Shown here: positions 9,373 through 39,398 of the stretch, piece after piece | How positions within the stretch are numbered: position 1 is the stretch's first letter | How the letters are laid out: every line of letters begins with the position of its first letter | NCBI GenBank assembly: GCA_963720265.1 | Contig: CAVRET010000001.1 | Span: 261,916-325,915, forward strand | Origin: an uncultured bacterium | Lineage (GTDB): Bacteria > Patescibacteriota > Saccharimonadia > UBA4664 | Direction: 5' to 3' | Length of the DNA stretch: 64,000 nt | Translations under genes and position numbers: made by a program | Notes under the pieces: generated by a model | Seen by the model: the letters and a program-made list of their open reading frames with translations, nothing else | What the model was told of the DNA's origin: nothing | Database searches by the model: none

Positions 9373-9500
9373 AATGTGATTGTCTCGTGATTCTCAGCTC
9401 GCGCCAAGCGGAATGTGATGATTACTAATACTCCGACCAGGACCACACTCCATTGGTGTGGCCCTGGTCGTGTCGTGGGTCGGCCGAGCACGTCAGCGAA

Positions 9501-10067
9501 TTACGGGGCCGACTGCTCAGCGGGTTTGGCGAGCCGGTGCATGATCGCCTCGTCCGAGATGTTCCAGCCCCAGCTGGAGCTGAAACATCTCGGCCCCAGA
9601 CGCTGTATAACGTAGTTCTCGAGCGACGCCATACTCGCGCCACCAGGGCGCCGAAAGAGTATGTCCGGCCCCTCCGACTGATTGCCGCGATATCTTGTAT
9701 GACCGAGAACCAGATTATCGCCGTACCCGTTTCCGCAGCACAGGCCAATGCGTGCATGCAGCTTGACCGTCGAAAGACCAGTCTCCTCCATATAGTTCAC
9801 AGGGTCGGTGCTGAGGCCGCTATGCCTGCCGATTGACACCCGTGCCGAGCCGGCGGGGTTCACGATGTCTGATGTTCCGGGGATCTCGTGCCATCCGCGC
9901 GACAACGTTACGCCGGTCAGCTCGGACAGGATCGGCCGGTAGACGACCGCTCCGATGCCGGTGAGCAACCGTAGGTCTTTCCGGCTGATCCTGCGTTGGT
10001 CGTTGCTGCTGATCACGAGCATGACCGAGCTGAACTTGAGGAATTCTCTTAGCGAAAGCAGCCTCAT
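9501..10067 (-). CDS. Hypothetical protein (weak resemblance to M15-type peptidase motifs)
   Basis: Fills the cysS-ABC gap on the same strand, 188 aa; RHSGLSTD and GHTRYRG weakly recall the SxHxxGxAxD / ExWHxRY motifs of D-Ala-D-Ala carboxypeptidases. Not a confident assignment. Confidence 0.3.
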   Translation of the reverse strand: MRLLSLREFLKFSSVMLVISSNDQRRISRKDLRLLTGIGAVVYRPILSELTGVTLSRGWHEIPGTSDIVNPAGSARVSIGRHSGLSTDPVNYMEETGLSTVKLHARIGLCCGNGYGDNLVLGHTRYRGNQSEGPDILFRRPGGASMASLENYVIQRLGPRCFSSSWGWNISDEAIMHRLAKPAEQSAP

Positions 10068-11712: not shown

Positions 11713-11952
11713 TTAACTGGGCGGGGGAAGGATCGCCGGACGCCTTGGCGGGGGAAGAATGGCCAAAGGTATCGGCGGCGCCAGCAAGAAGCACCTTTGC
11801 GGACCGGTTCCGAAGAGGTGGCCTTCGCATACGTACTCGTCAACCACGTAATCGGTACCGGCGTCCACAAGCACCTCAACGACCTCTACAGCCGGTTCGC
11901 TGCAGTGGGCGCACAATCCCAAGCTGAGCTCGGGGTTGATTGGTTCGGACAT
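11713..11952 (-). CDS. Small hypothetical protein with putative zinc-ribbon (CAHC...CEGH) and proline-rich tail
   Basis: ATG preceded by AGGAGA 6 nt upstream; followed by the hairpin at 11655..11700. Confidence 0.35.
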   Translation of the reverse strand: MSEPINPELSLGLCAHCSEPAVEVVEVLVDAGTDYVVDEYVCEGHLFGTGPQRCFLLAPPIPLAILPPPRRPAILPPPS

Positions 11953-12053
11953 CTTGCTCTCCTGACAGCCGGCAGCCTGGATGGCTGCTTGTACCGTAGG
12001 TATCCAGCCCACAGATAGAAAGTGCAGCCGCGTGGAGAAACAGACGGATTATG

Positions 12054-13049
12054 TCATTTTATGGGTGTATTGTCTAGCAGATATTGACTAAAGGTTTGCT
12101 CCAGGAGTTTAATTTCGGCGCGGATGTTGGGGGTTTTACAGCGATAGGCCGCGGCGTTGGGGTGGCCGCCGCCGCCGAGGATTTCGGCCACTGGGCCGGC
12201 TGCGCCGGTGGTCGAACGCAGCGGCACGTTGATTTTGGTGCCGTAATTCTTGAACACGGCGACAAGCTCGACACCTTTGGTCCATTGGATATCAGAGAGA
12301 ATGAGCGTGTAGGGCTCGGCAATATCTTTGTAGCGGGCGACTGTGTCGGGGTTGATCTCGGCTATGGCGAGGCGGCCGTCGAGGTAGAACTCGACACTTT
12401 GCAGGAGTTTGCCCTTGAGGTGAAGTAAGTCTGGCGTAATGGCGGCAGCTTCGCGACGGAGTTTAGCGAGCTCGTATAGGTTAGCACCACGAGCAGTGAG
12501 CTCGGCGAGTGCCGCCACACTTTTGGCCGTGGTGCCGGAGGTAGTGAGACCGAGTGAGTCGGCGAGAAGCGCTGACGCCAGTTTGGTGGCGGCGCGCTCA
12601 TTGATCGGCCATTTCAGTTTTTGTCCGATGCGGGTGACGAGTTCGGACGTGGCGACCGCTTCATCGACAATTTCTGTGACCGGGAAGCCGAATTCCTGCC
12701 GACTGACATGGTGGTCAATAACGAAGAATGGTTTCGAGGTAAGGGCGGCGGCGTGGTGTTCGAGGGCTGATTTTATGAGTGCAGGCGAGCCGGTGTCTAC
12801 GAGAATAATGAGGTCGAAATCTTTGGGCAAGTCTTGGCTAACCCGGTCCCAGCCTTCAAGAAAATGCAGGTACGGCTCCGGCTTTTTATATGAGTAGAGC
12901 GAGACGGTTTTGCCCAGGTCGCCGAAGATTTCCTCTAAGCCGAGCGCGGTGCCGAGCGAGTCGCCGTCGGGTGCGTCGGGCTGAAGGATGAGAATATGGC
13001 CGGCTGCGGTAACGGCACTACCCAGATCTTTTATTTTGGATGAATTCAT
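12054..13049 (-). CDS. nrnA: DHH-family phosphoesterase (NrnA-like oligoribonuclease / pAp phosphatase)
   Basis: ILILQPDAPDGDSLG, IDHH, GGGH motifs; internal start MNSSKIK chosen to avoid overlap with the upstream GT2. Confidence 0.65.
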   Translation of the reverse strand: MNSSKIKDLGSAVTAAGHILILQPDAPDGDSLGTALGLEEIFGDLGKTVSLYSYKKPEPYLHFLEGWDRVSQDLPKDFDLIILVDTGSPALIKSALEHHAAALTSKPFFVIDHHVSRQEFGFPVTEIVDEAVATSELVTRIGQKLKWPINERAATKLASALLADSLGLTTSGTTAKSVAALAELTARGANLYELAKLRREAAAITPDLLHLKGKLLQSVEFYLDGRLAIAEINPDTVARYKDIAEPYTLILSDIQWTKGVELVAVFKNYGTKINVPLRSTTGAAGPVAEILGGGGHPNAAAYRCKTPNIRAEIKLLEQTFSQYLLDNTPIK

Positions 13050-13056
13050 TGGCTGA

Positions 13057-13920
13057 TTATACCAGTTCTTTTGGCCAGTAATTGGGAAAATGAAAGAGAT
13101 AGTGCGGCGGTAACTTTCCGGCCCGATAATCTCGCTCGAGCTGCCGCCAGCGGTCGGCCTTGGTCGGATACCAGGTTTGGCCCTGCATAAGCGGGTCGTT
13201 TTGATGTTTTTCGTAAATGGCGTCGAGCTTGGCGGCGTTGTCTTTATACGACATGCCGAGGCCAGCAACTAAGCCGTCACTGCCGTAGCGTTGATGGTAG
13301 GTGGCAAGCACTTTGGGTACGTATAGGAACCCATCGGGGTAGTAGTTGCCGAATTGCATCACGAGATCAAGGTCTTCCATGCCGGCTAAGGTTGGATCGA
13401 ATTTAATGGAGTCAGTAATGAGGCGGCGTTTATGCATAAAGCCGTTGACGTCGAAGATCATGCGGCGGTGAAAAATATCCTGGATCGAGAGGGTTGCGGG
13501 GTACTCGTCGGAGCGGTCGATGGTTTCCACGCGTCGGCCATTCAGGTAGAGCCCGTGCGTGTAGTGGACCTGTGGTGCTCCGTAGCTGGCTTCGGGGTGG
13601 TGCCGAAACGCCTTACACATGGTTTCCAGGTACTTAGGCTGCAATTCATTATCGGAATCAAGGTAGGCGACCCACTCGGCTCGCGCGAGCGGCAGTGCGC
13701 GGTTGCGGGCGGCGGACGGCCCCGCGTTGGCCTGGAAATGGTAGCTGATGCGCGGATCGCCGATGTCGGAAATGAGCCCCTCGGTGTCGTCGGTGGAGCC
13801 GTCGTCCATAATGATGAGCTCCCAGTTTGGGACGGTTTGGCGCTGAATACTATCGACCGCATTTTTTATAATGTAGGCACGATTATAGGTGGGCATTATA
13901 AACGAAACGAGTGGCTTCAT
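13057..13920 (-). CDS. Family 2 glycosyltransferase
   Basis: MKPLVSFIMPTYNRA...LIIMDDGSTDDT...YLDSDNE (DxD region). Confidence 0.75.
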   Translation of the reverse strand: MKPLVSFIMPTYNRAYIIKNAVDSIQRQTVPNWELIIMDDGSTDDTEGLISDIGDPRISYHFQANAGPSAARNRALPLARAEWVAYLDSDNELQPKYLETMCKAFRHHPEASYGAPQVHYTHGLYLNGRRVETIDRSDEYPATLSIQDIFHRRMIFDVNGFMHKRRLITDSIKFDPTLAGMEDLDLVMQFGNYYPDGFLYVPKVLATYHQRYGSDGLVAGLGMSYKDNAAKLDAIYEKHQNDPLMQGQTWYPTKADRWRQLERDYRAGKLPPHYLFHFPNYWPKELV

Positions 13921-13941
13921 TGGCGGTATTATAACAATAGT

Positions 13942-14379
13942 ATGGTGCCGCTCGAGATTTTCGTAACATACTTTTCGGCTTATTCCGCACATGCGACCGA
14001 GTATGATGGCGTACTTTATGCGACGGTAGAGCATGCCTATCACTGCCAGCGTTATGAAGATGAAGATATCCGAAGGCAGATCATGGCGGCCAGGAGTCCG
14101 TTTTTGGCCTGGCAAAGGTCACAAACGTATAAGGCACGGCAATTGCCCGCCTTTAATGACCGTAAAGTTGCGGTGATGGAGGCTTTGTGCCGCGCCAAGC
14201 TGGCCCAGCACGACGATGTCCGGCAGGCGTTGCTCGATTCGGGCTCACTTATCATTGTGAAGCACATAACGGCCGGGCCATTGGCGGATGGCTTTTGGGA
14301 CGACGGCGCCGACGGTAGGGGCCGCAATGAGGTTGGTCGAATTTGGATGCGATTGCGAGCGGGCATACCTGGTATCTAG
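13942..14379 (+). CDS. NADAR (DUF1768/YbiA-like) family protein
   Basis: F...YSAH..EYDGVLYATVEHAYHCQRY...LIIVKHITAGPLADGFWDDGADGRGRNEVGRIWMRLR matches the NADAR consensus. Only the 3' 145 codons of track ORF 13432..14379 are taken as real. Confidence 0.6.
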   Translation: MVPLEIFVTYFSAYSAHATEYDGVLYATVEHAYHCQRYEDEDIRRQIMAARSPFLAWQRSQTYKARQLPAFNDRKVAVMEALCRAKLAQHDDVRQALLDSGSLIIVKHITAGPLADGFWDDGADGRGRNEVGRIWMRLRAGIPGI

Positions 14380-16608: not shown

Positions 16609-18468
16609 ATGAACACTTACAATCGTATCACAGCCACGCTTGAGGCTTTTGTGCGCCGGTATCACGCGTGGATCGCAGGCGGACTGATCTTTATTATGGC
16701 CGTGCTGGCACTTTCGAGCATGGTCGGAAACTCCGCCATCGTGGATGAACTAGCGCACATACCGGCCGGCTACTCGTACCTTAAGTATGGCGACTACCGG
16801 CTCAACCCCGAGCACCCGCCGCTGATGAAGGATTTGGCGGCGATTCCGCTGCAGTTTATGAACCTCAAAGGCTTTAACACCTTGCCGGAATGGACGAGTC
16901 AGGTTAACGGCGAGTGGCAGGCCGGCTACGACTTTTTGTACAACCTGGGCAACAACGCCAACGCCATACTATTTTGGGCGCGGCTGCCGATTTTGCTCGT
17001 GATGCTCGCTTTTGGCGCTTGGCTCTACTGGGTGAGCCGCCGGCACTGGGGCACTGCTGTGGCTTTGCTTGTGCTGTTCTTCTATGTGTTTAGCCCGAAC
17101 TTTTTGGGCCACGGGGCGCTGGTCACGACCGACTTGGGTGCGGCTATCTTTATGTTTGCGGCGCTGGTGATGTTTGGGCGGTTTGGCAAGCAGCCGGACC
17201 GGGGCAATATGTGGTGGCTGTCGGTCGTGCTGGCCGTGGCGGAGTTGGCCAAGTTTTCGTCCATCCTGTTGTATCCGTTTTTCGTTGTAGGATCTGTGGT
17301 GCTGTGGCTCACGATGACGAAACCAAAGGAGAGTTGGCCAAGATTTAAGACCTACGTCGGCCGCACAATTGTAGCCTGCCTCTTAAGTCTGGTTTGGATC
17401 TATCTGGTCTATGCGCCACAGGTGCGCAATATGCCGACTTCGGTGCAAGACAGCCTCATTACCGGTTCGCTGGTGGCTAGCAATGTGACCGGCATTGGCC
17501 AGCTGCTCGTGAATGTCAGCCACATTCCACTGACGAAGCCGTTGGTGCAGTATGGCTTGGGTGTAACCATGGACGTCGGCCGGCTGGCGGGCGGCAACGT
17601 GACCTACTTTAACGGCCAGGTCAACGATGAGAGTTTCCGCGGTTATTTCCCCGAGCTGTTTGTGGTGAAGACACAGGTGGCCATGCTCATACTGATGCTC
17701 GTTACGCTCGGGTTTGGCATCTGGCGGCTCAGACGCGGGCGCGGGCGCTACCGCGATGTTTCGGAGCGCTGGGTACGGCATTTCCAGCGCCACATCTTGG
17801 AATGGTCGCTTGGTACCTTTGCGGTGTTTTATTTTTGTGTGGCAGTGGGCGGCAACCTCGATCTTGGCATCAGGCATATATTACCGGTGTATTTGCCGAT
17901 CTTTGCGCTGGTTTCGATCGGCACAGTCGAGATTTTGCGCAAGCTGAGGCGGATGAAGTGGCGGGTGTCATCGGGCGTGGTATTGGGTTTACTGTTGGCG
18001 TGGTATGCCGGCAGTACCTTGGCTGTAGCGCCGTCGTATATCGCGTACTTTAATGAGCTTATCGGCGGTCCAAATAATGCGTACAAGTATTTTTCGGATT
18101 CGAGCATTGATTGGGGCCAAGACTTTTTCCGGCTGGTCGACTATGTGCGAGCTCATCCGCAGATTAAGCACATTGCAGTGGATTATTTTGGCGGCGCCAT
18201 ACCGGAATATTACGTTTGCCAGCGGTCGTATGATGCCAGCGGGCATTTGATTACAAACGGCACGTATAATTGCTCAAACAGTATCTACGAAGTGTGGCAC
18301 TCGAGCTATGGCCGCTACACTGGTCAGTATATTGCGGTGTCGGAGACGTATTTGGAAAACGATCGGTACTACTCGGCCCAATCCGGGCAGCCGAGTTATG
18401 CCTATCTGCGAGCGATGAAACCGATTGCGAAGATCGGTGGTAGCATTTACGTTTATAAGCTGTATTAA
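16609..18468 (+). CDS. GT-C fold membrane glycosyltransferase (PMT/ArnT-like, polyprenol-phosphate-sugar dependent)
   Basis: DELAHIPAGYSY motif in the first extracytoplasmic loop, about 11 TM helices, large C-terminal soluble domain. Confidence 0.55.
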   Translation: MNTYNRITATLEAFVRRYHAWIAGGLIFIMAVLALSSMVGNSAIVDELAHIPAGYSYLKYGDYRLNPEHPPLMKDLAAIPLQFMNLKGFNTLPEWTSQVNGEWQAGYDFLYNLGNNANAILFWARLPILLVMLAFGAWLYWVSRRHWGTAVALLVLFFYVFSPNFLGHGALVTTDLGAAIFMFAALVMFGRFGKQPDRGNMWWLSVVLAVAELAKFSSILLYPFFVVGSVVLWLTMTKPKESWPRFKTYVGRTIVACLLSLVWIYLVYAPQVRNMPTSVQDSLITGSLVASNVTGIGQLLVNVSHIPLTKPLVQYGLGVTMDVGRLAGGNVTYFNGQVNDESFRGYFPELFVVKTQVAMLILMLVTLGFGIWRLRRGRGRYRDVSERWVRHFQRHILEWSLGTFAVFYFCVAVGGNLDLGIRHILPVYLPIFALVSIGTVEILRKLRRMKWRVSSGVVLGLLLAWYAGSTLAVAPSYIAYFNELIGGPNNAYKYFSDSSIDWGQDFFRLVDYVRAHPQIKHIAVDYFGGAIPEYYVCQRSYDASGHLITNGTYNCSNSIYEVWHSSYGRYTGQYIAVSETYLENDRYYSAQSGQPSYAYLRAMKPIAKIGGSIYVYKLY

Positions 18469-19427
18469 GCGGGGCGGAGTTCCGCCAGGAGATCAGCAAG
18501 CTTGCAGGTAGCGAGGCAAACTCCTTGATCTCCGGATCCGTAGTAGACATACAGCTCCTCTCCGATAATGAGAGCTCCTTCGGGGAAGCAGACATTGTTC
18601 ACGACCCCCGTCTTCTCGTCTGTGGTTTCAGGTAGTAAAAGTGGCTCGTGACTGGCCGCGATAATCTTGCGTGGATTGTCCCGGTCGAGCAATGCAGCAC
18701 AGATGGTCCAGCGGGGTTCGCGCGAGAACCCCGCGTAAATGAAAAGCCAGCCGGCGTCGGTCTCAATTGGTACGGCTCCAACTTCTTGCTCAGTGAACTG
18801 GCCGGCGAGCGGAATTTTGAGATGGTCCTGATTGAGGTCGGCGTTTTGCCAATAGTCCTGTGTGACGTGCCCGAGTTGCTCCAGCGTGTCAAACTCGGAT
18901 GCAATGACGCGGGAGCGGCCTCCGTTCTTCTGATCCGACCAAAGCATGAGATATCGGCCGTTAATTTGATGCGGGATGACGGCAGCGGCTTTGGAATAAC
19001 GTTGCGGCCCAACGACGCCATATTTGGTAACGGTTTTGAAATCGGTCGTCGTGGCCAGGGCGATGCGGACACGCGAGGTGGTTTTCTCACCGGCCACAGC
19101 GGTGTAGAAAATGTAATATTGGTTGCCAATTTGGGTAATGCGGGGATCCTCACAACCGAGGCTGTTTTCGTATGACTGGTCCGGAGCAATTAACGGTTCT
19201 TGTTCCCGCTCCCAATGGACACCGTCGGCGCTCCAGGCTAGGCCGATTGAGGACACGTATCCCCCACGCTCGCTTGTTTTTATGTCATTTGTGGCGCGGT
19301 AGAGCATACCATATCGGCCGTCTGGCATTTTGCCCCAGGTTGTTGGGTTGAATACCGAACCGGCTTCCCAGTGGTTGTTTGAGTTCTTTGTCAGTATAGG
19401 GTTGGCGGAATGACGGGTGAGCCTCAT
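18465..19427 (-). CDS. Glycoside hydrolase family 130 protein (beta-mannoside phosphorylase/hydrolase-like)
   Basis: NPIL...FNP...YRA...IGLAWSADGVHW...LGCEDPRITQIG..YYIFYTA: the GH130 five-bladed propeller signature. Confidence 0.7.
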   Translation of the reverse strand: MRLTRHSANPILTKNSNNHWEAGSVFNPTTWGKMPDGRYGMLYRATNDIKTSERGGYVSSIGLAWSADGVHWEREQEPLIAPDQSYENSLGCEDPRITQIGNQYYIFYTAVAGEKTTSRVRIALATTTDFKTVTKYGVVGPQRYSKAAAVIPHQINGRYLMLWSDQKNGGRSRVIASEFDTLEQLGHVTQDYWQNADLNQDHLKIPLAGQFTEQEVGAVPIETDAGWLFIYAGFSREPRWTICAALLDRDNPRKIIAASHEPLLLPETTDEKTGVVNNVCFPEGALIIGEELYVYYGSGDQGVCLATCKLADLLAELRPA

Positions 19428-19446
19428 TTCCCCACTATAGCAGTTT

Positions 19447-21366
19447 TTACATAATGGGCTTGAGGCCGGCGATGAGTTCGTCTAAGCCAACGGTGGCAAC
19501 GCCGATGACATGATCGGCGGCGCCGTAGTAGAGGTAGATTGTATCACCTTTTACGACTTGGCCGCAGGGAAACACGACATTGGAGATCCAGCCTTCGCGC
19601 TCGTACGGCTCAACCGGAGTCATGAGGGGCTGGGCGGTCCGGCCGATGAGGTGAGTGGGGTCGCGGCGGTCTAGCAGAGCGGCGCCTAGGCAGTAGTGTC
19701 CAGCCTCGGTGATGCCATGGTAAAACAGAATCCAGCCGGCGGGGGTTTTGATGGGTGGTCCGGCAATACCGACTTTTTTCGCGTCCCACATGCCCGGTCT
19801 CGGGCCCAGAATTTGAATACAGCGGGTAAGTTTTTCATCGCGGAAGTTGAGGCTCGTAACGTAATCGGCACAAATGTGGCCCCCTACGCGGTGGAGTACC
19901 ATGTAGCGGCCGTGCATAGCTTCTGGTACGAGGCAGGCGTCTTTGTCGTCGACGCCTTCCGGGCTGATAAGCCGCGCCGGAGTCCAGCGGTCCCAGCGGT
20001 GAACGAGGAAATCGGCGACCGAGATAGAGCTTTCGGCTACTTCTGGCGCAACGACCGAATCATAGGCAGTGTAGGTGAGGTAAAGCCGGTCACCGATGCG
20101 GGTGAGCCGCCCGTCTTCGCAGCCGGAGTTGTCGCTTGGACCGCCATGTTTTTGCTCAAAATCGGCGCGTGGTCCATAGATTGGCGTTTCCAGGCGCTCA
20201 TTAATGTGGAGGCCGTCTTTGGCTCTGGCATAGCCTATGACCGACGTGTTGTCAGGGCCAACCGCGCGGTAGAGTATGTGTGTACTGCCGTCGAGCTCAA
20301 CGGCAGTGGGATTGAGCACGTGACTGGCCTCCCAAGGGTGTGCTGCCACCGGCTCAAGTATCGGATTGCCCTGATAGCGCTTAGCGGCCTGGGTGACGGT
20401 GCCGTCGGCTGACAGGCTGGCCATCAGGCCGGAGAAGCTTAACCGAGCCCGACAGCAGGTGGTGTCGGTACCGCCGTAATAGAGTTCGAGCTCGTCGCCG
20501 TGACGGAGTGCGCCGGACGGAAAGATAATTTTGGGTAAGCGCCCGTAGCGCTCGTAGCCTTCTTCCGGCACCATGAATGGGAAAACGGTCCGGCGTAGGA
20601 CTTTGGTGGGGTGCTCAAGATCGAGCAGGGCGGCTTCGATGCCAAAGGTTTTGTGGTCGGTGAAGTAGTCTTGGATATGGGCGTATAGGAGTAGCCAGCC
20701 GTCCGGCGTCCAAAGCGGGGGCGCGCCAACCTCGACGTGCTCACCGTCGCCGCGCTTAAGATTTAGAGTGTGCTCGTCCAGGTGGTTGTACCAATGCTCC
20801 CAAAAGTAAGGTGACCACATGTCCTCGGGCGCGGCGAATTCGGCAATAGCGATGGAGCTGGGCGGCCGGTCGGAGTTAACGGTCAGAATGGCGCGTAGTT
20901 TGCCGTTGTGTCGCTCGGGGAAGAGCGCCATAGCCTTGGCGTTGAACGGAGTGACAAGATGGCGTTCATCGATGGTTTTCAGATCCTTCGTGGTGGCAAC
21001 CGCGACCTTAATGTTGTCGGGTCCAAATGGGTAGCCGGCTAAGGCAGTGTAGAAAATATAATAGGTGTGGCCAATTTTGGTTACCCGTGGGTCTTCGCAA
21101 CCAAACCGTTCCCACGGTTGTTCAGGCGTAATGAGCTGGCGTGGGCGGTTGAAGCCACGGCCGTTTGCCTCAGCGATGCCAATGGTTGAGAGCTCGAGGT
21201 CAGCTTGTCCAGCGTAGAGCGTGGGATGGGTGGCGGCGCGAAAGATGGCGTGAAGCTTGCCGTCGTGCATAACCGGCGAAGGGTTGAAAGCGGCTTCGGC
21301 GTACCATGGTTCGTTGGTATCGGGGCTGATAAGCGGGTTTTGGGGGTCGCGGGTGACACTAAACAT
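19447..21366 (-). CDS. Tandem GH130-GH130 fusion protein
   Basis: Two complete GH130 modules, each with its own FGCEDPR / SGCEDGR catalytic region and a C-terminal YYGxxD motif. Confidence 0.7.
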   Translation of the reverse strand: MFSVTRDPQNPLISPDTNEPWYAEAAFNPSPVMHDGKLHAIFRAATHPTLYAGQADLELSTIGIAEANGRGFNRPRQLITPEQPWERFGCEDPRVTKIGHTYYIFYTALAGYPFGPDNIKVAVATTKDLKTIDERHLVTPFNAKAMALFPERHNGKLRAILTVNSDRPPSSIAIAEFAAPEDMWSPYFWEHWYNHLDEHTLNLKRGDGEHVEVGAPPLWTPDGWLLLYAHIQDYFTDHKTFGIEAALLDLEHPTKVLRRTVFPFMVPEEGYERYGRLPKIIFPSGALRHGDELELYYGGTDTTCCRARLSFSGLMASLSADGTVTQAAKRYQGNPILEPVAAHPWEASHVLNPTAVELDGSTHILYRAVGPDNTSVIGYARAKDGLHINERLETPIYGPRADFEQKHGGPSDNSGCEDGRLTRIGDRLYLTYTAYDSVVAPEVAESSISVADFLVHRWDRWTPARLISPEGVDDKDACLVPEAMHGRYMVLHRVGGHICADYVTSLNFRDEKLTRCIQILGPRPGMWDAKKVGIAGPPIKTPAGWILFYHGITEAGHYCLGAALLDRRDPTHLIGRTAQPLMTPVEPYEREGWISNVVFPCGQVVKGDTIYLYYGAADHVIGVATVGLDELIAGLKPIM

Positions 21367-21462
21367 GCTAATAGCGTATCATGCTCATGCTTTTCGTATA
21401 AGGTGCGGTTGATAGGCGCTCAGTATTAGGCTTATTAGGACAAACACCGATATAACGTTGAA

Positions 21463-21500
21463 GGCGGCGCCGCAGGGAGATATTCCCGTGCGGCGCCGCC
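21463..21500 (-). terminator. GC-rich hairpin (ggcggcgccgcaggg...cccgtgcggcgccgcc) downstream of the GC-rich small ORF
   Basis: Read directly. Confidence 0.3.
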
Positions 21501-21521
21501 AATGGATGTTGGTTGCGTCAG

Positions 21522-21827
21522 CTAGTGGGAGGATCGGAGCGAGAGCTCGCGCCTGAGCGCGGGACTCTGGGCGATGTCCACCGCGACGATGACCGCGAGA
21601 GCCACGAGCGCCATCCCGCCCGCGAAGGCGAGGACCTCGTAGGCGGCGTTGTGCGCGGTGGCGGTCGCCAGCAAGAGTGCCAGGTAGGCGACCAAGAGCG
21701 CGGTCGCGCGACGGGAGGAGGTCCTCTCCGCTGCCTGACGTGCTCGACGCCTCGCATCTTGTACGGTCCGTCCGGTCGGCTGGGTCATGACGACCTCCAA
21801 CTTGTCTAGGTTTGAGCCTGCGCTCAC
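21522..21827 (-). CDS. Hypothetical small membrane protein in a ~68% GC islet
   Basis: One predicted TM helix (LLVAYLALLLATATA...), Arg-rich N-terminus; composition unlike its flanks. Confidence 0.3.
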   Translation of the reverse strand: MSAGSNLDKLEVVMTQPTGRTVQDARRRARQAAERTSSRRATALLVAYLALLLATATAHNAAYEVLAFAGGMALVALAVIVAVDIAQSPALRRELSLRSSH

Positions 21828-21944
21828 TTATTTGTCCTGCCCCATCAGCCGTTGTGGCTCCTGGCAGTAACGTTTATGTATAATATCATAAAAATATTTA
21901 TAAGTCAATGTCTCGTTTGTTTTTGACGGCCCGATTGTTTGGCT

Positions 21945-23826
21945 TTATTCGTTGATCGGAAGTGAGAGGTCGACGGCCTCAAGCTGAGGCCTGGCGGCGG
22001 CGGTAAGTGCGTTTAAGAACTGCTCGACGTTGGCGCGGGCAGCGGCAATGCGCTTGTCTCCCCCGCCGTAGTAAACGATGAGGTTGGGGCCCACGATAAC
22101 GGCACCGCAAGTGTAAACCACGCCGGGTTTGCCGTCGTTCTCGTACCATTCCTCGGGGGCGAGAATGGGCTCGTTGGTACGGAAGAGGACCTGGGTGGGG
22201 TCGTGCAAGTCGAGCAACATGGCGCCGATTTTGTAGCGGCTGGGATCGGCTTTGTCGATAGCGTGGTAGAGCAAGAGCCAGCCGAGCTCAGTTTTGATGG
22301 GCGGAGCGCCGGCACCGCGCATGCCGTTGTCCCAGTGATGCGCCCGTTTGGGGTCGTGGTAGCCGCGGCCGCCGGCCTGAGGCAGGCTTTCGATGAATTT
22401 TTTGCCGTTGAGGTCATCGAGGCTGTCGACATATTCAACATGAATCTTGGGGCTGACGCCATGCAAAATGGCGTAGCGGCCGCCGATTTTGTCTGGAAAC
22501 AGCACCCAGTTTTTCTGGAGTTCGCCGGGTTTTGAAATGAGCACGGGCTTGCGCCATTTCCAGTGATGTTTTTGGACTTTGTCGAGCGGAATCGAGGTTA
22601 AAGCTTGGCGCACGAAACTCCAGCCCGTCAAAGGCGACATAGCTCATATAGACATCATCATCAATGACCACGGCGCGCGGATCTTCGCAGCCGGCCCAGC
22701 CGCCGCCTGAAACATTTAATTCGGGATCATAGCCGCGCCGGCCGCCGGCTACGGGTTTGGTTGGGATACCCATGCCTTTTATTGGTGTAAATACCGGGTA
22801 CGGTAGGCGCTCGTCAAAATGAATGCCGTCGGAGCTTGAAGCATACCCCAGGCGCGAAATGCCGTCCGGTCCCATGGCCCGGTACAAGAGGTGTACTCGC
22901 TCGCCGTCGGTAAACGCGGCCGGATTAAACACGGCGTGCGACTCCCATTCGTAGAACGTGGGCGAAAGAATGGGGTTGCGGGCAAAGCGGTGGAGTTTGG
23001 TGGCGTGCCGGCCGGAGCTTTGGCGGTGGTAGGGGTTGGGCAGGCGGACCACCACGATCTTGTCGTGAGCGGTTGAGAAATAGAGGTCAATGGTGTGATC
23101 GAATACCACGGCTCCAAGCGTGCGCGGTTCGGACGTGGCTTTGGCTATGAATTCATAGAATGGGGCTTCGGTGCGCCAGAGCACTCGCTCTGGCTCGCTG
23201 CGTGAACACAACAGGGTGCCGATGGCGATGGTGGTGCGGTCCCGTTTGGTAGTACGCGATTCATAGATCACGAGAATGCCGGTTTCAACTTGATCTACTG
23301 CGATAATTTTGAGTGCGGTGTGATCGAACTCGCCCGCTCGTGGCGCAGCTAGCACCTGAGGTACGGCGTGCCAGGCAACTAGGTTTTTGGAAAACGCGAC
23401 CTTGAGATCGCGCTCACCATAATAGAGTACATATTGGCCGTCGTGGCTATATTCCGGCACAACGGCGCCGGTTCCCCTGAGATGGTTGTTGAGTGCTGCT
23501 ACGTGCCACAGGTCCATTTCGCTATCGGCATCGAAAGCAGCCACGCGGACGTATTGCACGTCATCGTGAACAACCGAGTAGGTCAGGAGGCGCTCGTCGA
23601 GTACTGTCGCAATGCGGGCATCGGTTATGTGGGCCAGCGACTCTTTGCGTCCGAGCGGCAGCATGACGGATGGACTTTCATCTGAAAGATGGAAATTCTC
23701 GCCGTGCCCTTGGCCAACAACTAACCGGTAGGTCTCGGAGTACTTGTCGCGTCCTATGAGTCCGACTGCATTATCGTCACGAAAAATCCCAAGCGGATAG
23801 GTCTTCCTTAACCCCGGTTGCTGCAA
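21945..23826 (-). pseudogene. Multi-module GH130 gene interrupted by a frameshift near 22615..22640 (track ORFs 22435..23826 and 21945..22640 overlap)
   Basis: Upstream ORF has a degenerate propeller plus a GH130 N-half ending ...GCEDPRAVVIDDDVYMSYVAFDG. The downstream ORF continues in another frame with the GH130 C-half (...WVLFPDKIGGRYAILHGV...YYGGGD). Confidence 0.55.
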
Positions 23827-23907
23827 CTGTGGATACTCCCTCTCTTCGTGCTCATTTTAGCACAAGCAGTATGAAAGTGAATAGTTTTTGTGTTGTTTTT
23901 TTTACAA

Positions 23908-24681
23908 CTACTTCGAGCTTGTTGCCGGGTGATGGTATGACGGTTCCTGGTAACGTTCGGACCATAGCCACCAGCGAATCTTTAAAGGGTCCAGTACTTC
24001 GCGCAGAGCACTTTTAAACTGCGGGTCGCCGGTGAGGCCGGCTCCGGGCGGTTTGGGGTCGCGCCAGTCCGCCGCTTCAAAAAAGGTGATATGGTAGCCG
24101 AGGTTGCGGGCGATGCCCAAAATCTCGAGATCAAAACTCCAGTTAATCAGGGTCTGGCGGCCGAATATGGCAAGTGCGGCGCTCGCCTCGAAGACTTTAA
24201 AGCCACATTGGGTGTCTTTAATGCCCGGCACCACAAACAACTGGGCGGCTAGATTGGCCAGTTTTGAGACAAGCCGGCGAGTGGGATTGTGGTGAATGCG
24301 CCAGAGGTCGCGTACCGCAATGCCGACTTGGCCGTGTCCGTCCATAAAGTGCTTCACGTCGTCGAGATGACGCAGAGGGGTGGCAAGATCGGCGTCCATG
24401 AACAGACGGTAGCGCCCAGTGGCTTCAAACATGCCGAGGCGCACCTGGTAGCCTTTGCCGACGCGAGGGCCAGAATCGATGACACGCAGGCGTTTGAACA
24501 GATGAGCTTGGCTTTTTGCGATCTCAAGCGTTCCGTCCGGGCTTTTGCAAATGACTGCCAGTACCTCAACCTCGCCGTAATCGTGCTGTTCTAACCAGGT
24601 TGCGAGCTGTTCCAGGCTTGATGCAATGACCGGTGCCTCATTGTAGGCCGGTATGATAATGCTGAGGTCTATTTCACTCAT
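23908..24681 (-). CDS. GT2 polyprenol-phosphate glycosyltransferase (DPM1/GtrB-like)
   Basis: LSIIIPAYNEA, DADLATP (DxD), QCGFKVF: the dolichyl/polyprenyl-phosphate hexosyltransferase pattern. Confidence 0.75.
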   Translation of the reverse strand: MSEIDLSIIIPAYNEAPVIASSLEQLATWLEQHDYGEVEVLAVICKSPDGTLEIAKSQAHLFKRLRVIDSGPRVGKGYQVRLGMFEATGRYRLFMDADLATPLRHLDDVKHFMDGHGQVGIAVRDLWRIHHNPTRRLVSKLANLAAQLFVVPGIKDTQCGFKVFEASAALAIFGRQTLINWSFDLEILGIARNLGYHITFFEAADWRDPKPPGAGLTGDPQFKSALREVLDPLKIRWWLWSERYQEPSYHHPATSSK

Positions 24682-26216
24682 TTGGTTGAATCATACACGT
24701 AATAAATTTGAGCTTGGTTGAAGGTGGAGTACTGTGGTTGCAAGATATGCCCCGGGAATTTGGCCTGAAGGGCCTTGGTGGCGTCCGAGCGCGATGCAGA
24801 GGCAATCAGGAACTCGACCGGCGTGGTGGCGGGTAGGCTTGTTATGGCCTCAGCGGCTACGACCTGGTACGGGGCCTTATCATAGTTGAGATAGGCTATT
24901 ACTGGCAACTGATCGGCCGGCGCGACGATGTAGCGGGTGCCGGTAAACGGCGTCGATGCCATATAATGTGCCATCCCAACGGCGCCTTCGTCGTAGGCCG
25001 CGTAAACCTCAGAAGCGGCGGCCCAGGCGCGGAAGTATTGGGTGTAGCCCTGAAAAATGGTGAGGCCTAGCAATACTATCACGGCCGACTGACCGGCTGT
25101 GCGAGCAGCCGAATTAATTGGAAACGTAGTATACCAGAGTTCGAGCAGATACGATATGCCGATGGCAGATATGACGAATATGGCTGGCATCATAAAAGCT
25201 GCGTGCGCGGCGTTGGGCACACCGACAGTACTCAGCGTTGTGGTAATGATGCCTATGATTAGAATGACAAATATCAGACGGTAGCGTCGCTCGTGTAACC
25301 TGGAAATCCCGACGAGCAGGCCGGCGACTAGGGTGAGGCCGACGAAGGCGTTGAGCATCGGTTCGCCGGCTAGGTTGTGGCGCCAGTTTTGGTCACCCGA
25401 CACATTAAACATGAAGAGCACTTTGAGCAGATTGGCGGTGAGCGTCATTGGGTTTATGGTCAGGCCGAGGGTGCTGGGCAGATGCTTAAGGTTGTGTAAG
25501 GAGATTGTTGCGGTCATGACAAAGCCGGCCAGACCACCGAGGAGCACGCAGGTGGCAAGGACGTGATTGCGGCCGGTAAGGTTTAGTTTGCGTTCACGAA
25601 TCATAATGGATAGGCCGATCCCCAGTGTGGTGGCAAATATGAGCCAGCCGAGCGGGCCAGAGAATAGATTCGCTACCAATGCAACGGCCAGGGCTGTATA
25701 TGTAATGAGGCCAGGCTTTCGGCGGGCCAAGGTGGCAAGCCAGAGCGTGAGTGTGGCCAGAAACGGAATGATGGCGACGCTTGAGCCGTCGCGGCTTAAC
25801 GTTACCGCCCACGGCGTAACGGCCATGAGGAGCGCGCTTAGCCAGGCGGCCCGCAGGCCAAACCAGTTTTTTGTCCACAGCCAGGTAGTAAGCACGGCGA
25901 GGGTGCCAAAAATGGCCGGCCACAGTCGCAAAGCGAGCAGACTGGAGCCCAGGATTTTAACCATGATGCTTTGCAGTGCGACCCACAGCGGAGCGTAATT
26001 GTTAGCCGAGACCAGCCCGGGCAAGTGGGCATGATGCGCAAGCGCTAGCGCCTGCAGGCCAATTGCGGCCGGGGTGTTGTATAGCCCCGGCGGTATGGTG
26101 CCCAGGCGCCAGAAGCGAAATATAGCGCCCAGTGCCGCCGTGGCAGCAAGCGCAATCTGGGACGTGTAAGGGCCAAGCCAAGCGAACGGCGGCTGGAGCT
26201 TGGGTGCGCGTGGCAT
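24678..26216 (-). CDS. GT-C fold membrane protein (PMT_2/ArnT-like), third component of a GtrABC-like module
   Basis: FWRLGTIPPGLYNTPAAIG loop-1 region after TM1, about 12 TM helices. The usual Asp-Glu pair is replaced by Asn-Thr here. Confidence 0.5.
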   Translation of the reverse strand: MPRAPKLQPPFAWLGPYTSQIALAATAALGAIFRFWRLGTIPPGLYNTPAAIGLQALALAHHAHLPGLVSANNYAPLWVALQSIMVKILGSSLLALRLWPAIFGTLAVLTTWLWTKNWFGLRAAWLSALLMAVTPWAVTLSRDGSSVAIIPFLATLTLWLATLARRKPGLITYTALAVALVANLFSGPLGWLIFATTLGIGLSIMIRERKLNLTGRNHVLATCVLLGGLAGFVMTATISLHNLKHLPSTLGLTINPMTLTANLLKVLFMFNVSGDQNWRHNLAGEPMLNAFVGLTLVAGLLVGISRLHERRYRLIFVILIIGIITTTLSTVGVPNAAHAAFMMPAIFVISAIGISYLLELWYTTFPINSAARTAGQSAVIVLLGLTIFQGYTQYFRAWAAASEVYAAYDEGAVGMAHYMASTPFTGTRYIVAPADQLPVIAYLNYDKAPYQVVAAEAITSLPATTPVEFLIASASRSDATKALQAKFPGHILQPQYSTFNQAQIYYVYDSTK

Positions 26217-26707
26217 TACAGAAACACCACTTTTTTATAGGCTACGTAATTCCAAGCCAGGCTAATAATGGTGCCGACTAGTTTGGCAAAGTTTTTGATA
26301 ATGAACTGGTCGTGCCCGCTGACACCTAAGGCGTGGCAAAGCGTGACGGCGGCATCGGCCGGACCGAGCCAGACTTCGGTGAGCAGTTTGATGGTACCGG
26401 TTTGCAAAACGTAGAGGCCGAAGGCGGTGACGAGGTAGAACGAGATGACCTGGCGCCAAAACGGGCCGCTGTGCTCGCGAAACACCAGCTTGCGGTTGGC
26501 GAAAAAGCTCACGATCATGGCCACGGTGGTGGAGATGAGGTTGGCCTGCACCAGGGTGAGCCGGCCAGGCGCCGAGAGAATGTTGAAGAGCCCGAAATCG
26601 ATGAGCGTGTTAACGACGCCGACGAGTCCAAACTGGCCGATACGCTTAGCCTCTGCCCGCTTTGTTTGGCCTTGTGTCACTCCGACCTCATTTGATGATT
26701 TAAGCAT
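26216..26707 (-). CDS. GtrA-family membrane protein (polyprenol-phosphate-sugar flippase-like)
   Basis: FGLVGVVNTLIDFGLFNIL...SFFANRKLVF, 4 TM, about 160 aa; internal start MLKSS preferred. Confidence 0.65.
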   Translation of the reverse strand: MLKSSNEVGVTQGQTKRAEAKRIGQFGLVGVVNTLIDFGLFNILSAPGRLTLVQANLISTTVAMIVSFFANRKLVFREHSGPFWRQVISFYLVTAFGLYVLQTGTIKLLTEVWLGPADAAVTLCHALGVSGHDQFIIKNFAKLVGTIISLAWNYVAYKKVVFL

Positions 26708-26862
26708 AATTGATTTGGCAGGTAGCTGTAAACCGGCCTCGCGGTAACAGATTGACTGCTTTATCGCCGCACCTAGCGCGGAACGCTCGCTGCGTAACTC
26801 GCTTGCGCTCAAACAGTGCTCGCGCCACGTCCTGCGCTGGACTTGGTATACGGCATGATCGC

Positions 26863-30988: not shown

Positions 30989-31895
30989 CCCTGAATCTAA
31001 AAACCTAGCCAACTAGAAAACGAGCGGGCGCATACTGTTTCTTGTAAGAGAAAACAAACATGCAACCACTCGCTCTCGAATCACATCATATCGTGGATTT
31101 ATTTGTCGTCATAGACGACGCCGTAGCAGAACCGACCCGGCCGCAGGGTGGCCGGCCAAAACTTGTTCGTGATTCAGAAATCATTACCCTTTTAATCTGG
31201 AATTGTATATCGGATACGCGTCAGCGTACCCTTAAATCCATCTTTCATTGGGCCTTGTTGTACCACCGTCGTGACGTGCCCAGGCTCGGTACATATGGGG
31301 CTTTTGTGGCCCATTGCCACCGTCTTTTGCCTCAACTTCTCGAGCTTTTGGGGCAGATGCTGGTTCCAGCCGAGATCCAGCTAGTAGATTCAACCAGGCT
31401 GCCGGTGTGCCGTAACCACCGGGCCGACAGTTACAAAGTGGCAGCCGGTCTGGCGGGCTGGGGTAAAAACTGGCAGGGCTTTTGGTTTGGATTTAAGTTG
31501 CACGCGGCGGTGGACGTGGAAGGGTGGCTTTCGGCCGTGACCTTTACTCCAGCTGACGTCTACGACGGTCATGTGACGCCCGGGCTGGTACGGCCCGAAA
31601 CTAAAATTGTAGTGGGCGACAGCCATTACGGCGACAAAATCGCCCGGGAAAAGCTTTGGCGCGAGCATGGTGTAGTGGTTGTAGCACCGGTTCATTACCG
31701 GCAAGTTTCTCAAATTATGGCTTCGTGGCAACAAAAACTTCTTGCTGCACGAGTCAAAGTCGAATGCACATTTGACTACTTAAAAGAACATCTGAACTTA
31801 GTTAGTTCATTCCCGCGGAGCAAAAACGGCTATCTGCTCCATTACGTCAGGATTTTGCTGGGCTACCAGATGGGACGGGGTTTTTAGATTCAGGG
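30989..31895 (+). mobile_element. IS982-family insertion sequence, 907 bp, perfect 17-bp terminal inverted repeats, flanked by 5-bp direct repeat TTCTG
   Basis: IRL ccctgaatctaaaaacc at 30989..31005; IRR ggtttttagattcaggg at 31879..31895. TTCTG at 30984..30988 and 31896..31900. Transposase stop codon lies inside IRR. Confidence 0.7.
31060..31887 (+). CDS. IS982-family DDE transposase
   Basis: VDSTRLPVCRNHRADSYKV...WFGFKLHAAVDVEGWLSAVTFTPADVYDG...VVGDSHYGDK matches the IS982 transposase core. Confidence 0.75.
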   Translation: MQPLALESHHIVDLFVVIDDAVAEPTRPQGGRPKLVRDSEIITLLIWNCISDTRQRTLKSIFHWALLYHRRDVPRLGTYGAFVAHCHRLLPQLLELLGQMLVPAEIQLVDSTRLPVCRNHRADSYKVAAGLAGWGKNWQGFWFGFKLHAAVDVEGWLSAVTFTPADVYDGHVTPGLVRPETKIVVGDSHYGDKIAREKLWREHGVVVVAPVHYRQVSQIMASWQQKLLAARVKVECTFDYLKEHLNLVSSFPRSKNGYLLHYVRILLGYQMGRGF

Positions 31896-33386: not shown

Positions 33387-33600
33387 ATGTTGACTCCTTT
33401 GGTTGATATTAAAAAACTCTTGGCGCACACCAAGAGACATTGAGAATTCCGTAATGAGCGCGGTTGGGCGCTTTTTGGATACCTCGGTAGCCGAATTTTA
33501 AGCCCGGGATGGGCGGCTACTGTCTATGGTGAACGAGAGAATTGTACGTTATCTGGGGGCTTTGGTCAAGATTTCTCCGAATTAACTCCTTCAAGCGCGG
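33387..33600 (-). promoter_or_regulatory. Probable L10 (rplJL) 5' leader / autoregulatory region
   Basis: About 210-nt non-coding stretch upstream of rplJ with several stem-forming segments. Position-based inference only. Confidence 0.3.
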
Positions 33601-35166: not shown

Positions 35167-36108
35167 TTAAGCAACGTATGGCGTCCCTCGTCTCCAGACC
35201 GCGTGCACTCGGTTGAGGAGCTTTCTTGCAACCACAATGTTGGCTTCGGTATACCGCTTGCCCTCGGCCCGTTTCTTGGCGTACACCGCCTTGAGCGCAG
35301 GGTCGTGCCGTTCAGCGCTAGCGGCCGCCATATAGATTGCTCGACGCAAGTATGGTGAGCCGCGTTTAGTGAGATGCGTATTGCGGTTAAGGCTCGCTCC
35401 ACTTTGCCGGACTCGTGGGTCTAAACCGGCAAAAGCAATGAGCGATTTACCAGTCGGGAATCTGGAAATGTCACCAATCTCGGCTAGGAGCGTGCATGAG
35501 ATGACAACTCCAATGCCTGGGATGGATTCAAGCAGGCTTTTCAGCTCCGGTGCTGCATGCGTGCCGGCCTGGGCCCGAAACACCTCTGAGGCTTCACCGA
35601 GTCGCTGCTCGCAAGCAGCCAATTCAGCAATGAGATCCGCTTCAGCAGGAAGAACGGTGGTTAAGTGGTAACGCATGAGCGTCAGCGCTTGTCGTATGTT
35701 GACGAGTTTTACGCCGGTACGCACCATGGACTTCATTGCTCCAAAGGTCGCCGCTGTCACGAGCGTTCCCTCGCCTTGGGCGGCCACTCGAGCCACAACC
35801 TCAGCGTCGGTAATATCCGTCTTCTTCTTGCGCACGGTGGCCCTCGTGAATTGCTTGGTCGTAATGGGGTTGAGCAATCTAAATGGCACTCCGAGATCCA
35901 AACATATTTGAGCCAGAGGCCGGTGATATTCAGCGGTAGCTTCACTAGCCAGTACCAGATGTTTGTAGCGCCTGCGCAGGCTTTCCACGACTGGCAGAAT
36001 AGCTTCTTTGGTGTTTGCGATTTTGTATTGCTCCTTAACGGCACCGCTTCTATCTATACGAGCTCCAAACAGCATATCTTTGCCCACGTCGAATCCAACC
36101 ACCACCAT
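35167..36108 (-). CDS. IS110-family transposase (DEDD)
   Basis: VVGFDVGKD N-terminus, C-terminal GIGVVISCTLLAEIGDISRF...AFAGLDPRVRQSG...TKRGSPYLRRAIYMAA. Element ends not determinable by eye. Confidence 0.8.
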   Translation of the reverse strand: MVVVGFDVGKDMLFGARIDRSGAVKEQYKIANTKEAILPVVESLRRRYKHLVLASEATAEYHRPLAQICLDLGVPFRLLNPITTKQFTRATVRKKKTDITDAEVVARVAAQGEGTLVTAATFGAMKSMVRTGVKLVNIRQALTLMRYHLTTVLPAEADLIAELAACEQRLGEASEVFRAQAGTHAAPELKSLLESIPGIGVVISCTLLAEIGDISRFPTGKSLIAFAGLDPRVRQSGASLNRNTHLTKRGSPYLRRAIYMAAASAERHDPALKAVYAKKRAEGKRYTEANIVVARKLLNRVHAVWRRGTPYVA

Positions 36109-39242: not shown

Positions 39243-39398
39243 ATGAGTACAGAATACGAAGTTGAACTGCAGCCGGAAGGCGATGATCCAGATAGCTACT
39301 ACGGGGAAGAGGATATGGACGCGGGCGATCTCGATTTGAGCTTTCTCGACGACGCCGACAGCGACGAGGATGAAGACGAGGAAAAGCACACGACTTGA
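39243..39398 (+). CDS. Small highly acidic peptide, translationally coupled (ATGA overlap) to the GT4 gene
   Basis: 51 aa, about 50% D/E; CATAAT 6 nt before the ATG. Confidence 0.25.
   Translation: MSTEYEVELQPEGDDPDSYYGEEDMDAGDLDLSFLDDADSDEDEDEEKHTT

Follow-up and report, generated by a model that had tools for sequence, protein, structure and literature searches.

More than 99% of the known or predicted mannoside phosphorylases of family GH130 are single-module proteins, and GH130-GH130 proteins are rare, with four sequences in the dataset concerned (PMC7660257). Synthesis by enzymes of the GH130 fold has published precedent (PMC10913872; PMC12814180): every tested beta-1,2-specific GH130 phosphorylase also has weak transferase activity with GDP (guanosine diphosphate)-mannose (PMC12814180), and in GT108, the paralogs missing the phosphate-site Arg act strictly as transferases, replacement of this Arg abolishing phosphorolysis (PMC10913872). 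GH130 enzymes that lack basic residues can also be hydrolases (PMC4599007). Here, a 64 kb stretch (hereafter called the window) of a Saccharimonadia (TM7, Patescibacteria) genome was analyzed, taken from a contig of 567,794 bp, in which genes for five GH130 modules lie among the genes of a polyprenyl-phosphate glycosylation module.

Polyprenyl-phosphate glycosylation is carried out by three-component systems such as GtrA/GtrB/GtrC of Shigella phages, CsbB/GtcA/YfhO of Firmicutes, Ppm1 together with a GT-C enzyme in Actinobacteria, and ArnC/ArnT. An earlier reading of the DNA alone (the sequence-only reading) had described the locus as such a glycosylation module fused to an array of five phosphorylase modules and had proposed an integrated surface mannan or mannoprotein system. 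The two sets of genes are adjacent, but no gene fusion joins them. Comparison with related loci instead points to two functionally separable modules that were joined in one Saccharimonadia subclade and of which the GH130 cassette likely runs an endogenous, cytoplasmic turnover of beta-1,2-mannosides, a reading to which we assign a probability of roughly 0.55.

GH130 modules and their active sites

All GH130 genes of the window are located on the minus strand. The upstream gene (21945-23826) is split into two overlapping open reading frames (ORFs), 22435-23826 with 463 amino acids (aa) and 21945-22640 with 231 aa. Its first half is a degenerate module (22972-23826, N-terminal, identified by profile-profile comparison) and its second half is termed type C (21945-22971, C-terminal, assigned by GH130 profile and residues). 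A GH130-GH130 fusion of 639 aa (19447-21366) follows, whose first half is termed type A (20401-21366) and whose second half type B (19447-20400). The last gene encodes a single GH130 protein of 320 aa (18465-19427), an extra, type A-like paralog that shares 34% identity with the type A module and is grouped with it. In the Pfam scan, PF04041 was matched by the single protein (1e-41), by the fusion in two stretches (3e-84) and by the pieces of the split gene (5.6e-26 and 1.3e-14). A beta-1,2-mannobiose phosphorylase was the top NCBIfam match for every piece, in all cases under the equivalog cut-off. GH43 and GH32 as alternative families for the propellers stayed under their cut-offs (2.5e-4 and 6.5e-3, against 1e-41 for GH130).

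The five modules share 28-36% identity in pairwise comparison and appear to be old paralogs, not recent repeats. The degenerate module is detectable as GH130 through profile-profile comparison only, in which its homology to the other modules receives a probability of ~99% over 229-243 columns (hhalign). In a comparison of 86 related loci, it was kept in at least 27, and only two of these loci, L001 (a contig of a different sample that is nearly identical to the window) and L003 (one of the closest relatives, L002-L006), had the single GH130 gene. The fusion protein, the one GH130 protein that was modeled, is predicted to adopt the five-bladed beta-propeller fold, with a predicted local distance difference test score (pLDDT) of 93.9 and a predicted template modeling score (pTM) of 0.90 in AlphaFold2. 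In a Foldseek search with this model, the best solved match was Teth514_1788, with a template modeling (TM) score of 0.90, a root mean square deviation of 1.9 Å and 34% identity.

Published residue criteria for these enzymes comprise a proton-donor Asp, a Glu/Lys (E/K) pair for the beta-1,2 linkage and an Arg/His pair for phosphate binding (PMC4599007; PMC7660257; PMC12814180). The residues were compared in 86-107 sequences per module type, with the numbering of Uhgb_MS checked in the alignment (R202 and H261 of Uhgb_MS correspond to R168 and H231 of UhgbMP). E136, D137, and K184 are present in 107/107 type A, 87/87 type B and 83-86 of 86 type C sequences as well as in the single copy, and all four catalytic modules bear the E/K signature of beta-1,2-mannoside enzymes together with the proton-donor Asp. 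In the degenerate module, E136, D137, and K184 are absent and none of the catalytic residues is kept. At the phosphate site, type B exhibits R202 and H261 in all 87 sequences, with Lys or Arg, usually Lys, at position R242, and its L2 loop is short and of the same length as in Teth514_1788. Type A carries Thr or Ser in place of R202, Ser in place of H261, and His in place of R242, with an invariant Glu two residues on. Type C keeps H261, mostly has Ser, Gly or Asn for R202, and shows a conserved Arg displaced by one position from R242. The single copy lacks both R202 and H261 and has Glu-x-Glu at the R242 position. As the full phosphorylase residue set occurs in type B only, one of the five modules can be regarded as a canonical phosphorylase. 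Thus, the GH130 homology that the sequence-only reading had proposed for five modules holds for all of them, whereas its description of all five as phosphorylases fits the active-site residues of type B alone. The domain names that it had given to the listed genes, GH130 assignments included, were otherwise borne out by the Pfam scan and the ORF list. The profile search that it had suggested as a check, with GH43 or GH32 as the damaging outcome, came out in favor of GH130 and of a beta-1,2-mannoside signature in the catalytic modules.

A hydropathy scan found no hydrophobic segment or signal peptide in the GH130 proteins of the window, which are consequently predicted to be cytoplasmic. Within the proposed cassette, the predicted role of type B is the reversible conversion of beta-1,2-manno-oligosaccharides and phosphate to alpha-mannose-1-phosphate. 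Types A and C keep the sugar subsites but not the phosphate-binding arginine and probably do not catalyze phosphorolysis, given the analogy with the R153H variant of GT108 (PMC10913872). Conceivably, they use a nucleotide sugar to prime or lengthen chains, hydrolyze such chains, or act as partner subunits. Taken together, the cassette could operate as a reversible, reserve- or buffer-like cycle between beta-1,2-mannosides and mannose-1-phosphate; we infer these activities and the direction of flux from sequence.

The sequence-only reading had described the split gene as a frameshifted multi-module gene, which is confirmed by comparison with intact orthologs. Alignment of the L003 ortholog with the window (tblastn) places the frame change near position 22626, where the DNA reads GACGGGCTGGAG. 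Removal of one G from the GGG run at 22624-22626 yields a protein of 626 aa that is collinear with the intact orthologs. Both halves of the gene are otherwise free of stop codons and are 55-67% identical to the L003 ortholog. The near-identical contig L001 begins at window position 22608, ~16-18 nucleotides (nt) past the GGG site, and thus gives no information on whether the additional G exists. Most simply, this G reflects an error in the homopolymer or a lesion of very recent origin. A programmed frameshift is an unnecessary assumption, as one extra G in GGG suffices and the orthologs are intact.

A real frameshift might mean that the cassette is decaying in this genome, with type C surviving as a pseudogene and the non-canonical modules as inactive remnants. 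This scenario would account for the one-base insertion and for the first module of the split gene, which lacks any catalytic residue, and the window also contains two transposase insertions. Nevertheless, it is improbable: a single additional base within a homopolymer is typical of assembly errors, the coding sequence on both sides of the site has stayed intact and similar to its ortholog, E136, D137, and K184 are strongly conserved in types A and C, and the degenerate module is itself conserved among the related loci.

The glycosylation module and its relation to the GH130 block

Upstream of the GH130 genes and on the same strand, the window encodes a GtrA-family small membrane protein, a presumed flippase (26216-26812; GtrA_DPMS_TM PF04138, 70.7 bits), a GT-C fold membrane glycosyltransferase (GT) of 512 aa (PMT_2/ArnT-like; 24678-26216; PF13231, 29.0 bits with a cut-off of 26.1), and a soluble GT2 glycosyltransferase of 257 aa (23908-24681; Glycos_transf_2 PF00535, 68.6 bits). 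The GtrA ORF comprises 198 aa, and a start at the ATG at 26707 is favored because the orthologs measure 157-161 aa. According to the ORF list, the genes overlap by 1 nt (base 26216) and 4 nt, respectively; they are a translationally coupled trio with GtrA first. On the far side of the GH130 genes, a divergent GT-C-like membrane protein of 619 aa (16609-18468) is encoded on the plus strand, so that its gene converges on that of the single GH130 protein and not all genes of the locus are co-oriented, as had been assumed earlier.

The AlphaFold2 model of the 512-aa protein (pLDDT 89.9) has ArnT (5F15; E 2.8e-10, TM score 0.55) as its top Foldseek match, followed by oligosaccharyltransferases and then by ALG9/12 and protein O-mannosyltransferases (PMTs), and the profile of its orthologs matches the oligosaccharyltransferase AglB at 6.6e-7. 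Single-sequence searches of the 512-aa and 619-aa proteins against solved structures gave no match, nor did the family profile of the 619-aa protein. The latter has ~11 hydrophobic segments, with an invariant VDEIAH motif after the first, and is related to the 512-aa GT-C family with a probability of 88% (hhalign). Its matches to PMT_2 (24.8 bits) and PMT (PF02366, 20.6 bits with a cut-off of 22.7) both remain under the cut-offs, while the PMT_2 match is strong in the ortholog from L087 and weak in those from L088 and L089. A protein O-mannosyltransferase of family GT39 is not supported for this protein, the PMT score lying under the cut-off and no MIR domain being reported. The GT2 protein shows weak matches to solved structures, namely an archaeal mannosyltransferase (6YV7, 8e-7) and the Pyrococcus dolichol-phosphate-mannose synthase (5MLZ, 1e-4), and no membrane segment was found in it by hydropathy scan. 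From its context and these matches, it is likely a polyprenyl-phosphate-sugar synthase of the GtrB/DPM1/Ppm1 kind.

GtrA, GT2, and GT-C hence make up the complete set of a three-component polyprenyl-phosphate glycosylation system. As judged from the protein families, the soluble GT2 would use a nucleotide sugar to glycosylate polyprenyl phosphate on the inner side of the membrane, GtrA would help to flip the sugar-loaded lipid, and the GT-C enzyme or enzymes would hand the sugar over to an acceptor of the envelope on the outside. Mannose as the sugar of this module does not follow from the Pfam name "mannosyltransferase", and neither sugar nor acceptor can be read from the sequence.

Whether the glycosylation genes and the GH130 genes belong together was assessed by searching 80 retained loci with the proteins of the window. 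The full arrangement DnaX-DnaB-GtrA-GT-C-GT2-GH130-GH130-(GH130)-second GT-C-YbaB-RecR was found only in the closest relatives L002-L006, whose fusion proteins are 68-74% identical to that of the window; the embedded layout thus occurs only at or above ~68% identity. In the remaining loci only the pair is kept, composed of an upstream GH130 gene with a type C module at its end and, after it, the A-B fusion. Three Saccharimonadia of greater distance (L087-L089) have the order Ham1-DnaX-DnaB-GtrA-GT-C-GT2-second GT-C-YbaB-RecR-DHH-CysS. Here, the GtrA ortholog (157-161 aa) directly follows DnaB, GT2 invariably takes the third place in the trio, nothing separates it from the second GT-C, the GT-C orthologs are 41-49% identical and the module contains no GH130 genes. 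By this gene order, the gene for the 619-aa protein appears to be the fourth gene of the ancestral glycosylation module. Conversely, the GH130 pair lies without GT neighbors in five Saccharimonadia contexts (L007, L084, L086, L090, and L091), and on contig_29178 the glycosylation module (341-363 kb) and the GH130 pair (550-572 kb) are ~200 kb apart. Judged by their lengths, at least 15 contigs are common to the match lists of the fusion and the 512-aa GT-C. Orthologs of the latter are almost confined to Saccharimonadia, and homologs of the fusion protein occur in Saccharimonadia and other Patescibacteria.

The occurrence of an intact, GH130-free glycosylation module and of a separate GH130 pair elsewhere indicates that an older four-gene module received the 5.4-kb block 18465-23826 as an insertion. 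In agreement, the region from ~6.5 to 38 kb of the window is syntenic with distant Saccharimonadia, apart from two transposase genes and the GH130 block. Neighboring sugar-related modules in a compact genome can thus result from a rearrangement in one lineage and need not form a system.

The integrated system proposed earlier would build a surface beta-mannan or mannoprotein, with the GH130 enzymes polymerizing or trimming a glycan exported or attached by GT-C. It draws on the adjacency of the genes (seven of eight on one strand), the conserved arrangement in L002-L006, the mannoside signature of the GH130 modules and the weak similarity of GT2 to dolichol-phosphate-mannose synthase. These observations are outweighed by the separability of the modules in relatives, both in L087-L089 and in the genome with the ~200 kb distance, and by the distribution of the GH130 pair far beyond Saccharimonadia, to which the GT-C orthologs are almost restricted. 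In addition, GT-C enzymes catalyze at the outer face of the membrane, outside the cytoplasm, and the GH130 proteins lack signal peptides and membrane segments. Weaker evidence comes from the 81-nt gap between GT2 and the first GH130 gene, which contains a promoter-like site. A promoter and terminator scan found 10 such sites with 5.7 +/- 2.5 expected, two of them preceding GH130 genes, which lends weak support to separate transcription of the latter. One integrated surface system is therefore considered very unlikely. In the two-module reading, the link would be at most a shared pool of mannose-1-phosphate or nucleotide-mannose, not a mechanical coupling.

The earlier gene list lacked a small ORF (21522-21788, minus strand; ORF list and hydropathy scan) that encodes 88 aa and is predicted to have two membrane segments. 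It lies within the 578-nt gap that separates the two GH130 genes, which abut in L003, and of the loci compared L001 alone shares it with the window. It reached no Pfam family at the cut-off.

The two transposase genes are located at 31060-31887 (plus strand, IS5-like DDE type) and 35167-36108 (minus strand, IS110 family) and interrupt the block surrounding the L10/L12 operon. Their presence in an otherwise syntenic block suggests recent genome rearrangement in this lineage. An L10 leader at 33401-33547 identifies the DNA as bacterial. A further GT2 gene (13057-14115, minus strand; PF00535, 103 bits; 287 aa in L001) is located between the DHH gene and RecR, beside a short NADAR-domain ORF on the opposite strand (13981-14379, plus strand), where no gene is called in L001. 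The 561-aa protein encoded at 4812-6497 (plus strand) matches the C-terminal domain of phosphatidylglycerol lysyltransferase (MprF-like) at 8.9e-67 and is probably a membrane-lipid modification enzyme in a very small genome. Other envelope-related genes encode a polyprenyl synthetase (54658-55737, minus strand), which could supply the lipid carrier for the glycosylation module, a GT4 glycosyltransferase (39395-40591, plus strand), and a pectate-lyase-like beta-helix protein (62409-63815, minus strand).

Genomic neighbors of the GH130 pair

Relatives of the fusion were searched in a one-genome-per-species collection, which returned at least 600 sites; 597 of the 600 among those listed were confirmed, so that the GH130 pair is present at 597 sites or more. 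The neighboring genes of all loci were clustered and scanned against Pfam and NCBIfam, with neighbor counts based on 87 loci. Outside Saccharimonadia, the usual partners of the pair are a cupin mannose-6-phosphate isomerase (PF01050, 117 aa; 45/87 loci, median gap of 19 nt to the GH130 genes) and a eukaryotic-type phosphomannomutase (PF03332, ~253 aa; 44/87 loci, median gap of 22 nt), which ties the cassette to fructose-6-phosphate. In nine loci (L034, L038, L047, L057, L058, L064, L070, L075, and L080), a nucleotidyltransferase of ~160 aa is located upstream of the pair. In these cases, it is followed by the phosphomannomutase or a similar HAD-type protein, usually by the isomerase, and then by the GH130 genes. 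Its best match, under the cut-off, is RfaE domain II, a heptose-1-phosphate adenylyltransferase (5.8e-22), and it could be the maker of a nucleotide-mannose.

The main rival of the turnover cycle is a purely catabolic role, in which beta-1,2-manno-oligosaccharides taken up from a host or the surroundings would be converted to mannose-1-phosphate and enter glycolysis through the phosphomannomutase and the isomerase, with types A and C as exo-mannosidases or debranching helpers. The isomerase and the phosphomannomutase that flank the cassette would suit this role as well, GH130 phosphorylases are classically catabolic (PMC7660257), and type A resembles GH130 hydrolases in lacking basic phosphate-site residues and in having a conserved His and Glu nearby (PMC4599007). 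In L084, a marine Saccharibacteria locus, a weakly MFS (major facilitator superfamily)-like membrane protein is encoded between the GH130 genes and a GH63-like gene adjoins the pair. Yet no conserved sugar-uptake genes were seen beside the cassette in the loci compared, and the recurrent ABC neighbors are of the MacB/FtsX type. The cassette is near-universal over habitats, while beta-1,2-mannans are rare substrates, and the nucleotidyltransferase of the nine loci suggests activation rather than breakdown. Moreover, known GH130 hydrolases are secreted (PMC4599007), which the GH130 proteins described here are not predicted to be. A purely catabolic cassette is therefore regarded as a possible but doubtful alternative. 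The lack of adjoining sugar-uptake genes agrees with the earlier observation that these GH130 genes stand outside the usual glycan-foraging context. The sequence-only reading had also named a finding that would speak against it, i.e., homologous loci in relatives without GT partners and next to mannan-uptake transporters; the former were found, but none of the latter was seen.

The MacB-type set (HlyD-like protein, ABC ATPase and FtsX permease, the HlyD-like label resting on a reading of the sequence) is located just upstream of the pair in L035, L040, L066, and L072, which belong to Moraniibacteriota, Parcubacteria, and unclassified metagenome-assembled genomes. This transporter is of the efflux type, not a sugar-uptake system. 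The membrane protein in L084 has 406 aa (8731-9951 of that locus, minus strand; MFS match at 1.3e-4), and the gene after the fusion (11921-13276, plus strand) is similar to GH63 and mannosylglycerate hydrolases, which hints at a link to transport or compatible solutes in this lineage.

A more far-reaching form of the turnover cycle is a Patescibacteria-wide, mannogen-like reserve or buffer of cytoplasmic beta-1,2-mannan, made by GH130 paralogs in place of GT108 enzymes. Here, types A and C would prime and extend chains from nucleotide-mannose, type B would phosphorolyze them to mannose-1-phosphate, and in the clade of the window the pool of the cassette, captured within the glycosylation module, would also feed surface mannosylation. 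The RfaE-like nucleotidyltransferase would form the nucleotide-mannose donor from mannose-1-phosphate, and the isomerase and phosphomannomutase would provide the connection to fructose-6-phosphate. This proposal is tentative and less probable than the more general turnover reading.

Several points weigh against an endogenous turnover by a separately acquired cassette. The GH130 block is kept exactly between GT2 and the second GT-C throughout a subclade, and selection for a mannose-related link could explain this retained position. The activities of the proteins rest on sequence and a structural model, active-site residues alone are a poor predictor of phosphorylase versus transferase function (PMC10913872), and the weak transferase activity of GH130 phosphorylases is perhaps physiologically irrelevant (PMC12814180). 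No report of beta-1,2-mannan in Patescibacteria was found in the literature searched, and a profile search detected neither the isomerase nor the phosphomannomutase in the 64-kb window. Finally, part of the cassette may have lost its activity in this genome through the frameshift in the type C gene.

Patescibacteria have tiny genomes with few recognized pathways, and their carbon storage and buffering are poorly understood. With its presence in at least ~600 species-level genomes, the cassette is a candidate for a sugar cycle that is conserved in this group and accessible to testing. Its enzymes also lend themselves to studies of what separates phosphorylases, transferases, and hydrolases within GH130.

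Comparison with known systems

The GH130 cassette with its three paralog types and its partner genes was not found described in the literature searched, which included few subscription-journal papers. One passing mention concerns a Microgenomates genome with two GH130 genes without signal peptides, for which intracellular sugar metabolism was suggested (PMC7143001).

The closest described enzymes are Teth514_1788 and Teth514_1789 (GH130_6) of Thermoanaerobacter sp. X-514, which are both the best sequence match (phmmer, 3.9e-51) and the closest structures to the modeled fusion (TM score 0.90). Type B shares with them the proton-donor Asp, the E/K pair, the R/H phosphate pair, the short L2 loop, and the (here predicted) cytoplasmic location. 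Unlike the Teth514 enzymes, type B is fused behind the non-phosphorylase type A and paired with type C, it usually has Lys at R242, and its partners are the isomerase and the phosphomannomutase in most Patescibacteria and the GT genes in the window.

A second parallel is the mannogen cycle of Leishmania with its tandem array of GT108 genes. There, too, cytoplasmic paralogs with a five-bladed propeller act on beta-1,2-mannosides, some members have the phosphate-site Arg and others do not, and the Leishmania array and the GH130 cassette alike connect to mannose-1-phosphate; for the latter, location and fold are predicted. In contrast to GT108, the modules described here are fused in multi-domain proteins, and types A and C may, by analogy, be transferases. 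Membership in GT108 itself was rejected, since MTP2 and MTP4 match with a TM score of ~0.6, 15% identity and E ~1e-9 in Foldseek, compared with a TM score of 0.90 and E ~1e-26 for GH130, and MTP proteins are absent from the sequence-search matches of the GH130 proteins.

Type A and the single copy can further be compared with the GH130_3 beta-1,2-mannosidases BT3780 and BACOVA_03624, with which they share the equivalents of E141, D142, and K199 and the lack of basic phosphate-binding residues. GH130_3 enzymes are characterized by a signal peptide and by carboxylates in place of the basic phosphate-site residues (E227 and E268 of BT3780; PMC4599007). By contrast, the proteins of the window have no signal peptide, and the phosphate-Arg position is occupied by Thr or Ser, not Glu. 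Judged by spacing, the His-x-Glu of type A and the Glu-x-Glu of the single copy near R242 may correspond to E268 of BT3780.

The glycosylation module resembles the three-component systems in that a GtrA-family protein, a GT2 and a GT-C enzyme are tightly coupled and conserved as a unit. It differs from GtrB in that its GT2 lacks C-terminal membrane helices, and from three-component systems in general in that a second, very divergent GT-C gene always lies convergently beside the trio and in that the unit is split by the GH130 block in the clade of the window. In summary, the glycosylation module can be classed among the ordinary three-component systems, to which it adds a divergent GT-C, and the GH130 cassette, the more interesting part of the region, is a variant of known mannoside-phosphorylase pathways.

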